This document shows positions 61,538 through 63,503 of a DNA stretch of 64,000 nt, piece after piece (within the stretch, counting starts at the first letter, position 1; the number at the start of each line of letters is the position of its first letter). Position numbers and translations under genes: made by a program. The stretch is from Escherichia coli (GTDB lineage Bacteria; Pseudomonadota; Gammaproteobacteria; Enterobacterales; Enterobacteriaceae). The notes below the pieces were generated by a model that did no database searches, had not been told where the DNA came from, and saw nothing but the letters and a program-made list of their open reading frames with translations. The stretch is taken from assembly GCF_003790525.1 (NCBI RefSeq), contig NZ_CP033635.1; one strand, 5' to 3'.

Positions 61538-61770
61538 CGCTAAATAATAGAGCAACCTTTAATAATCTTCTGCTGAATAAAGATTGTCTCATATATTAAT
61601 TTTATGAGATTTTTTTAGGATTATATCAAGGAGAAGAAACGAACTTATTAAGCTAGAATAGCTGCGGGTGCTTGAGACTGTTTGTCTCAGGTATTCACCG
61701 AAAGGCAGACAGAGAAAAGCCCCACCTGACTATAAATCAAAGTGTGTACTGACCCCAGAAAGTTGGACAG

Positions 61771-62622
61771 TTAAACACGAGGCATATAGGTCTGATTCCG
61801 ATATTCAATTGGAGTCAGACCTTTTAATTTCAGGCTAATTCTTCTGCTGTTGTAGTATTCAATATATTCCGTAACAGCATCCTTCAGCTCGCTTATATTA
61901 CTGAACTCATCAAGATAAAAACACTCCGACTTTAAGGTTCCAAAGAAACACTCCACCACAGCATTATCCAGACAATTGCCTTTTCTGGACATGCTTTGTT
62001 TAATACCATGTTCTTTAAGGATATTTTGATATCTTCTCATACGATACTGCCATCCCTGGTCAGAGTGCAGAACAGGATGCTCGTGAGGATTAAGCTTTTT
62101 GAATGCCTGATCGAGCATATTCTCGACCATGTTCATCACTGGTCTTTCCGAAAGGCTGTAAGAAATAACTTCGTTGTTGAAGAGATCTATTACTGGAGAC
62201 AAATACAGCTTGCGCCCATTGACTGCAAATTCAGTAACATCGGTAACCCACTTCTCGTTTGGCCGCGTAGCCTTGAAATCTCTTTGGAGAACATTGGGGG
62301 CGGTTTGCCCTACCTCTCCTCTGTAAGAGCGGTATCGCTTGACCTTAATCGCTGCCTTCAGTGAGAGGATTCCCATCAGGCGCTGAACAGCTTTATGGTT
62401 AATCTGTTTCCCTTCTCGATGAAGAGACAGCGTTACCCTACGGTATCCGTATCGGCCTCTATTCTCATGATAAATCTCACCAATACGCTTTTTAACGTCC
62501 GCATACTTGTCAGGCTTGCTGAGAGCCTTTAGATGGTAATAAAACGTACTGCGCGGTATCTCCGCAGCCCTGAGAAGCTCATCAAGAGGATAAAACTGCC
62601 TTAGCTCGTTGAGTACTTTCAC
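61771..62622 (-). CDS. insK: IS150 OrfB (DDE transposase catalytic domain; expressed as OrfAB by -1 frameshift)
   Basis: 283-aa ORF overlapping orfA end; rve integrase-core type sequence. Confidence 0.85.
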
Positions 62623-63140
62623 TTTTTCGTGGGATGAGCTAAGGCTTTCAGCTTTTTTAGATACACAAGCCGCGTTTCAAGAAATCGAACTTGCCTTTCA
62701 AGATCCTCAATGCGTCGGTCTTTTGACAGCTCCAATGCTGATGCCGCTTTTTCTGGATCAACTGATATTGCAATGTTTCTTTTGGTGCCAATCTTGAGCG
62801 CGCGTAAACCAGCTTCTCCGCGCTCTTCATAAACCTTCAGCCACCTGGCTACAGAACCACTACCAGCAAGCATAAAGTGAGCAGCAGCCTGATTAAGAGA
62901 CATGTGCTGCTCGATCACAGCTTTCACGACCTTAATACGCAACTCAGGATCAGCACTAACACCTTTAGGTTTGGGAATTAAACCTTTTTCTCCATGTTTT
63001 TCATAGAGGGCAACCCATGTCCTGACCTGGGTTCGGGGGACACCAAAACGTGCCGAGATGATCCTGTAACCATCATCAGTAGTGAAGTAGTGATTCACGA
63101 CTTCAAGGCGCTTTTCAAAAGGGTATTTTGGCTTTGACAT
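62619..63140 (-). CDS. insJ: IS150 OrfA (HTH transposase N-terminal protein)
   Basis: 173-aa ORF; C-terminal ...[17 protein letters not shown]; contains frameshift heptamer at 62652-62658. Confidence 0.85.
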   Translation of the reverse strand: MSKPKYPFEKRLEVVNHYFTTDDGYRIISARFGVPRTQVRTWVALYEKHGEKGLIPKPKGVSADPELRIKVVKAVIEQHMSLNQAAAHFMLAGSGSVARWLKVYEERGEAGLRALKIGTKRNIAISVDPEKAASALELSKDRRIEDLERQVRFLETRLVYLKKLKALAHPTKK

Positions 63141-63503
63141 ATCAGGGGCTATTCCATTTCATCGTCCAACAAAATGGGTGCAGTACATACTCGTTGGAAA
63201 TCAACACAGGAGGCTGGGAATGCCGCAGAAATATAGATTACTTTCTTTAATAGTGATTTGTTTCACGCTTTTATTTTTCACCTGGATGATAAGAGATTCA
63301 CTGTGTGAATTGCATATTAAACAGGGGAGTTATGAGCTGGCGGCGTTTTTAGCCTGCAAATTGAAAGAGTAAGCGTCTTCGGCGGGAAGTTATTCCCGCC
63401 TTTCTTACGGCGTTGCGCATTCTCATTGCACCCAAATTTATTCTTCACAAAAATAATAATAGATTTTATTACGCGAACGATTATTTATTTCCTGAATAAA
63501 CAA

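Follow-up and report, generated by a model that had tools for sequence, protein, structure and literature searches.

A structurally complete IS150 element (IS3 family, IS150 subgroup; 1443 bp, minus strand) occupies positions 61745-63187 of the window, by which we mean the whole 64-kb stretch of DNA that was analysed. It is very probable that this element lies within the leader of the hokA toxin gene with an accompanying loss of 38 bp, that the toxin-antitoxin module is disabled as a result, and that the allele is both old and widespread. Both the element with its frameshift signal and its insertion at hokA are already known and annotated in E. coli K-12, and the hokA arrangement was reportedly described in 1999, in the work of Pedersen and Gerdes on chromosomally encoded hok loci. 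Two points of a sequence-only reading of the same DNA are corrected here: the supposedly empty spacer between glyS and cspA holds a toxin-antitoxin locus, most likely put out of action by the insertion sequence (IS), and the absence of a target-site duplication reflects the loss of 38 bp. About 28% of the complete genomes of E. coli have this allele.

Ends, reading frames and frameshift signal of the element

The element is IS150, and nothing speaks against this identification. It aligns over its full length with the IS150 of MG1655 at 98.8% identity and with no indels, it carries the terminal inverted repeats, the overlapping reading frames with a hairpin and the HTH and DDE domains, and many genomes contain DNA 100% identical to it under the annotation 'IS3-like element IS150 family transposase'. 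The inverted repeat pattern TGTACTGNNCCCANNNNGTTGGAC has exactly two matches in the 64-kb window, in inverted orientation, against a chance expectation of zero as estimated from shuffled sequences. The match at 61745-61768 (+) is the right terminal inverted repeat (IRR), at the orfB-distal end, in which element position 14 is G (A in K-12), and the match at 63164-63187 (-), which lies upstream of orfA, is the left one (IRL). The two repeats agree at 18 of the first 24 positions, being imperfect, and form the termini TG...CA. A 3-bp target-site duplication is lacking; since the duplication is the footprint of an insertion event and not a property of the element, the assignment to IS150 stands.

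Both transposase reading frames are open. The orfA frame (insJ homologue, 62619..63140, minus strand) encodes an HTH DNA-binding protein of 173 aa, showing a full-length Pfam match to HTH_28 (4e-23) in addition to HTH_29 and HTH_32. The orfB frame (insK homologue, 61771..62622, minus strand) encodes a protein of 283 aa with the DDE catalytic domain, detected by Pfam rve (3e-29, profile positions 2-102 of 102), rve_2 and HTH_21. The catalytic residues D128, D188, E224 and K231 of OrfB are arranged with D(60)D(35)E-K spacing, in agreement with the features that define the IS150 subgroup, an HTH in OrfA and, in OrfB, D(57-60)D(35)E followed by a K (PMC5771124). The OrfA and OrfB proteins differ from those of K-12 at one residue (M159V) and two residues (S48G and T85I), respectively.

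Elements of the IS3 family express orfA from a promoter within or close to IRL, and a fraction of ribosomes slips by -1 at A AAA AAG, aided by a stem-loop, to produce OrfAB. The N-terminal HTH of this transposase binds the inverted repeats and the C-terminal DDE domain is catalytic, while OrfA and OrfB made singly act as modulators. OrfAB directs copy-out/paste-in transposition via a circular intermediate, normally leaving a 3-bp duplication. In the window, the heptamer A AAA AAG was found at 62652..62658 on the minus strand, in the orfA frame, with orfB overlapping in the -1 frame. Computed translation with a -1 read-through at this heptamer gave an uninterrupted OrfAB of 456 aa, which matched the whole profile of NCBIfam NF033516 ('IS3 family transposase') with 412 bits, the cut-off being 160 bits. 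At the SMS-3-5 locus, where the DNA is 100% identical, a product of the same 456 aa is annotated by PGAP as IS150 transposase with 'programmed frameshift'.

The bare heptamer is not rare, being present in 27 copies on both strands of the 64-kb window, and its reading as a frameshift site therefore rests on its context, that is, the overlap of orfA and orfB and the stem-loop downstream. Folding predicted a putative frameshift-stimulating stem-loop at 62598..62645 (minus strand), with a 10-bp stem formed by GCCUUAGCUC and GAGCUAAGGC. It begins 6 nt past the heptamer and has a minimum free energy of -20.4 kcal/mol (z = -4.04), a stability reached by none of 200 shuffled sequences. The use of A AAA AAG and a downstream stem-loop by IS150 is well established, and is attributed to Vögele et al. 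1991 in passages of PMC4066793 and PMC5771124. A permissive Rfam scan (E <= 1) of positions 61300-64000 gave no match to an IS frameshift-element RNA family; its only matches were cspA, sok and weak terminator-like ones (STnc370 and leader-peptide models), the last of which we took as noise from the glyS terminator.

The previous description, of an IS150 that is intact and carries a programmed -1 frameshift site, agrees with all of these results: both terminal repeats are present as the sole pattern matches in the window, both frames are open with full-length matches to HTH_28 and rve/rve_2, the heptamer is at 62652-62658 in the orfA frame, and alignment with the MG1655 copy, the proposed means of refutation, revealed neither frameshifts nor truncations. 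As for the span given there, 61745-63186, the left end is right while the right end falls 1 bp short of the true one at 63187.

Interruption of the hokA/mokA/sokA locus

Between glyS and cspA there is a third gene system, hokA/mokA/sokA, a type I toxin-antitoxin locus of the hok/sok type. On the right side of the IS, an intact hokA toxin ORF of 50 aa was identified at 63220..63372 (+), with matches to Pfam HOK_GEF (9e-24) and to the NCBIfam HokA equivalog NF007290 (130.8 bits, cut-off 89 bits); the same ORF is annotated as hokA in SMS-3-5. Immediately upstream, alignment to empty sites located the 3' remnant of the hokA leader and of the mokA frame (63188..63219, +), including the Shine-Dalgarno sequence AGGAGG of hokA. 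The equivalent of 63188-63372 is annotated in MG1655 as the mokA pseudogene b4647, and the mokA start codon ATG falls within the missing 38 bp. Downstream of hokA, the 3' region (63381..63434, +) includes a terminator-like hairpin at 63381-63400 and a candidate fbi-like fold-back segment at 63408-63434. This segment is complementary to the 5' end of the mRNA, as in long-range tac/fbi pairing; the predicted duplex between it and 61666-61687 has an energy of -23.0 kcal/mol (RNAduplex; 5 of 500 shuffles did as well), and the two partners flank the IS.

On the left side, the 5' fragment of the hokA mRNA leader was detected at 61666..61744 (+), starting with the 5' end element GGGUGCUUGAG. The Rfam sok model RF01794, which describes the hok leader, matched at 61666-61762 with 68.8 bits, the third hairpin being absent and model positions of about 84-150 missing. 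In the empty-site strain EC42405 the same model matched at full length with 124 bits, and the match ended at the hokA AUG. The hairpin absent from the window is the Sok target and the site of mok translation initiation. The antisense RNA gene sokA is represented by a 3' stub of 35 nt (61709..61743, minus strand), mapped from the annotation of MG1655, in which the sokA pseudogene b4614 is located 2 nt beyond the end of IS150; by this annotation the rest of the Sok gene is missing. The promoter scan found no promoter-like site on the minus strand of the right flank. As a separate possibility, we considered transcription of the transposase from the sokA promoter; by eye, the right flank retains the -35-like TTGATT of sokA without a -10 after it, and this candidate was rejected. 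With a truncated leader on the left and the hokA ORF on the right, the IS thus separates the promoter and leader from the hokA ORF, and since the full leader, the mok start and the sok gene are all lacking, the locus is a disrupted member of the hok/sok family.

The flanking genes are unaffected. The glyS ORF (59424-61493, ORF list) is followed by its terminator hairpin and T-run, read from the sequence at 61512..61535 (+), 210 bp to the left of the IS. The cspA ORF (63561-63773), its terminator (63509..63536, minus strand, terminator scan; 322 bp to the right of the IS, past hokA) and the cspA thermoregulator (63506-63933, Rfam) are likewise intact. These distances, and the intact state of both genes and both terminators, are what a neutral insertion into a non-functional spacer between convergent terminators, disrupting nothing, would predict. 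Such a reading is nevertheless very improbable, as hokA, mokA and sokA are present, the hok leader is split and 38 bp are missing; the truncated sok match, the 38-bp gap and the full-length match in EC42405 together refute it. The sequence-only reading, in which the IS was wedged between the glyS and cspA terminators and unlikely to disrupt either gene, was therefore correct for glyS and cspA, but not in treating the spacer as neutral.

From the anatomy of the locus, the K-12 annotation and the literature we infer that hokA and sokA are silenced. Insertion of IS150 into the hokA mRNA leader, accompanied by the loss of the 38 bp AGGCTACCCTATGCCTGAACACCATAAGGTTAGCCTCT, places the hokA promoter, together with the initial 79 nt of its leader, 1.4 kb away from the intact, orphaned hokA ORF. 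In hok systems, expression of hok depends on translation of mok. Because the leader is split by the IS and the 38 bp are lost, mok-coupled translation should be impossible and the antitoxin RNA reduced to a 3' stub, so that the module would be disabled. Transcripts starting from the hokA promoter would enter the IS through IRR and, just inside it, encounter the terminator-like hairpin that the terminator scan located at 61788-61822, facing these transcripts. With hokA unexpressed and the antitoxin RNA not made, the module is expected to be null. Some hokA mRNA could still arise by read-through from within the IS, and the Shine-Dalgarno sequence AGGAGG of hokA is retained.

The element had also been suggested to supply outward promoters. 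This suggestion was not supported by prediction: no outward or hybrid promoter was predicted at the IS ends, the region containing 3 promoter-like sites against 4.1 expected, and the promoter scan found no sigma-70-like outward promoter toward hokA. The same scan bears on the opposite interpretation, that the IS activates hokA, either by an outward promoter at IRL or by an in-frame GTG at 63178 within IRL replacing mokA. A 64-aa ORF (63178-63372) does start from this GTG in frame with hokA, and the Shine-Dalgarno sequence of hokA itself is retained; yet there is no promoter-like site toward hokA at the IRL end, the GTG is preceded by no recognizable Shine-Dalgarno sequence, and K-12 annotates the frame as the mokA pseudogene. 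Moreover, constitutive Hok without Sok would be toxic, whereas about 28% of complete genomes, including K-12, carry the allele. We regard activation of hokA as scarcely credible, and retain silencing by the insertion as the preferred interpretation.

The 38-bp loss, allele distribution and age of the insertion

No 3-bp target-site duplication was present at the refined ends of the element, where the flanks read ...CAAAGTG / IS / TACTCG..., and shifting the ends by 1-2 bp gave none either. The failure of the sequence-only reading to confirm a duplication is thereby accounted for, and the comparison that it proposed with strains lacking the insertion indicated the reason. After joining the two flanks and aligning them to three empty-site genomes, exactly 38 bp, AGGCTACCCTATGCCTGAACACCATAAGGTTAGCCTCT, were found missing between CAAAGTG and TACTCG; all the empty-site genomes examined (n=3) carry them. 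Within this segment lie the start codon of mokA, the hairpin for Sok targeting and mok initiation and, judging by position, the 5' portion of sokA. The duplication is absent because 38 bp of the flank have been lost, while sister alleles at the hokA site show AAG duplications.

The hokA alleles were counted among 5,426 complete E. coli genomes. The site is empty in 2,831 genomes, and IS150 is present in the orientation of the window in about 1,632. The allele of the window and K-12, combining this reverse orientation with the 38-bp loss, accounts for about 1,540 of the 5,426 genomes (~28%). Another 95 genomes, such as ST131 strain H105 and strain E94, have IS150 in the same orientation with the 38 bp kept and a clean AAG duplication. 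About 900 genomes, for example Z0117EC0062, have IS150 at this very position but turned the other way round, flanked by an AAG duplication.

The 38-bp loss could have arisen by an adjacent deletion after insertion or by recombination between two nearby IS150 copies, a type of recombination known from the IS150-mediated deletions of rbs. We weighed three routes, namely deletion from a reverse insertion with a GTG or AAG duplication, recombination between copies 38 bp apart, and derivation from the forward allele; the junction sequences do not discriminate among the three, and none was singled out. A reverse allele with the AAG duplication and the 38 bp kept does exist, in the 95 genomes mentioned above.

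Comparison with K-12 bears on the age of the insertion. The IS differs from the MG1655 copy by 17 substitutions, of which 12 are synonymous, 3 non-synonymous and 2 non-coding, giving a divergence of 1.2%, and the flanks differ by 1.2-3.8%. The similar level of divergence fits an old insertion that has diverged together with its flanks or has been exchanged together with them. Against SMS-3-5-like strains the window matched at 100% over 2.3 kb. Copies of IS150 100% identical to that of the window also exist at other chromosomal loci (the hokB leader) and on plasmids, suggesting that this sequence variant has transposed recently.

These observations bear on a further interpretation, in which the copy is a fixed and immobile relic, kept by descent and only apparently intact. 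The age of the allele, the identical junctions in K-12 and the window, the IS divergence close to that of the flanks and the missing target-site duplication all agree with a relic. However, mobility requires no duplication, and neither the two ORFs and inverted repeats nor the slippery site and stem-loop show any damage. The ratio of 12 synonymous to 3 non-synonymous substitutions suggests purifying selection or homogenization by active copies, and elsewhere, at other loci as well as on plasmids, 100% identical copies are flanked by fresh 3-bp duplications. We therefore consider the relic interpretation improbable, and take the element to be complete, at an old site of insertion.

IS150 at other hok leaders and comparison with known systems

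In natural isolates, IS150 was also observed at the homologous leader position of several hok loci, with clean 3-bp duplications directly 5' of YGAGGC. The duplications (in brackets) and targets are [ACC]CGAGGC for hokC of ET896, [AAC]CGAGGC for hokB of 2016C-3878 (with the empty site confirmed in 4,511 genomes), [CCA]CGAGGC for hok of the R1-type plasmid pMRY15-117_1, and [AAG]TGAGGC for hokA in several strains, in both orientations. By a rough estimate, copies at hok leaders would make up about half of the 5,293 chromosomal IS150 places in complete E. coli genomes. Judging from these sequences, the hok leader position is a hot spot of IS150 insertion. When the hok target was compared with the inverted repeats of IS150, having in mind targeting of the IS911 type, a weak TG....ACCC.AT likeness was seen by eye, and we claim no resemblance.

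We lean slightly toward the view that IS150 integrates site-specifically in hok leaders, always at the 3 bp that directly precede YGAGGC, where the Sok-target hairpin has its base, and in either orientation, the hok/sok loci serving as safe havens. If so, hok/sok loci would be preferred 'attachment sites' of IS150, and IS150 would be the main natural silencer of chromosomal hok, with about 88% of the IS150-carrying genomes having a copy at hokA. The copy in the window would then be one old example, secondarily deleted. True target recognition would make IS150 a tractable example of an IS3-family transposase directed to specific sites, and would account for the frequent inactivation of chromosomal hok loci. 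This precise and orientation-independent targeting is the sole part of the present analysis that might merit more study.

In laboratory evolution, trg/mokB is described as a hot spot of IS150 insertion, including in mutation-accumulation lines under weak selection (PMC5289635), and IS150 was repeatedly inserted at hokC/nhaA and hokE (PMC5419217). These E. coli B lines, from mutation accumulation or selection, share with the window the same IS and the same kind of locus (PMC5289635, PMC5419217), but their insertions are new events, whereas the window carries an old natural hokA allele with a secondary deletion.

As an IS, the element resembles IS3, IS911, IS2 and the IS150 subgroup (ISSau2), in which orfA and orfB overlap in the same way and an AnG slippery motif is followed by a hairpin (PMC5771124). 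The HTH and D(60)D(35)E-K transposase and the TG...CA ends are also shared with the frameshifting members of the IS3 family (PMC5771124). The likeness extends to the 3-bp duplications of the sister alleles; there is none on the copy of the window, from which flanking DNA has been lost.

As a toxin-antitoxin locus, hokA of the window resembles the hok/sok system of plasmid R1 and its chromosomal hok counterparts in E. coli in its Hok-family toxin ORF of 50 aa, in a leader with the 5' GGGUGCUUGAG element and the hairpins of the sok model, and in a 3' segment predicted to pair with the 5' end. Unlike these systems, it is broken: the start of mokA, the hairpin targeted by Sok and the greater part of sokA are gone, and the IS parts the promoter from the ORF.

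The closest counterpart is the IS150 of MG1655 (insJ/insK), located at 3,720,633-3,722,075 between the mokA and sokA pseudogenes and also 1443 bp in length. The order of mokA pseudogene, IS150 and sokA pseudogene, the orientation relative to hokA, the junction positions and the 38-bp loss are the same in MG1655 and the window, and so are the neighbours glyS, hokA and cspA; the last flanking base is G in the window and T in K-12.

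Target sites of IS150 in hok leaders

The leaders of hok genes are a hot spot for IS150 in natural isolates, and among complete E. coli genomes about 47% carry the element in their hokA leader. In hokA, hokB, hokC and an R1-type plasmid hok, the insertion point lies 3 bp 5' of the sequence YGAGGC, and the duplicated target is AAG in hokA (both orientations of IS150), AAC in hokB, ACC in hokC and CCA in the R1-type plasmid hok. The junctions of IS150 were located at 61742-61745 and 63187-63190 in the window, at 3797-3800 and 5242-5245 in the comparison locus L006, and at 2593-2596 and about 4035-4040 in L008; the hot-spot loci were also drawn from L009, L010, L011 and L012.

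In some forward-oriented copies, a TG dinucleotide is added between the duplicated target and IRL, as in ATCA[AAC]TG/TGTACTGC. The extra TG was detected in hokA of strain 129130 (L007, 1236-1240) and in hokB of strain 2016C-3878 (L011). It is located outside the target sequence, and may be left over from a circle-junction spacer.

Other variants of the hokA leader

The hokA leader of strain 129130 also carries IS1A (L007, 2680-3480), inserted 14 bp past the end of IS150 with a 9-bp duplication, AGGCTACCC, so that two different IS elements are stacked within one 38-bp stretch, the leader segment holding the mokA start and the Sok-target hairpin. In hokA of the ST131 strain H105 (L009, 1970-1978), a single nucleotide is deleted from the gap between the Shine-Dalgarno sequence and ATG (GGGATG vs GGGAATG); this allele combines the deletion with a reverse-oriented IS150 and an intact 38-bp stretch.

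Hairpins and RNA matches in the window

Just inside IRR, a terminator-like hairpin with a 15-bp stem followed by a T-rich tail is located at 61788-61822 (plus strand), reading into IS150 antisense to the 3' end of orfB. This hairpin could shield IS150 against transcription from outside, here from the hokA promoter. Rfam matches at gathering level were obtained for naRNA4, a REP-derived nucleoid-associated RNA (28586-28664, minus strand), and ES036 sRNA (42873-42915, plus strand), and no tRNA gene was found in the entire 64-kb window. Matches below threshold to STnc370 and several leader-peptide models, on both strands over the glyS terminator (61501-61567), most likely reflect no more than a bidirectional hairpin of the terminator.

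Reading frames around hokA

A 64-aa frame (63178-63372, plus strand) opens at a GTG within IRL and continues in phase with hokA (MQYILVGNQHRRLG-MPQKY...), taking the place of the lost MokA N-terminus. This frame is probably meaningless, because no obvious Shine-Dalgarno sequence precedes the GTG at 63178. A 23-aa ORF that runs antisense to the hokA 3' end (63349-63420, minus strand) is annotated in relatives, as ysaE in K-12 and as 'hypothetical protein' in SMS-3-5.
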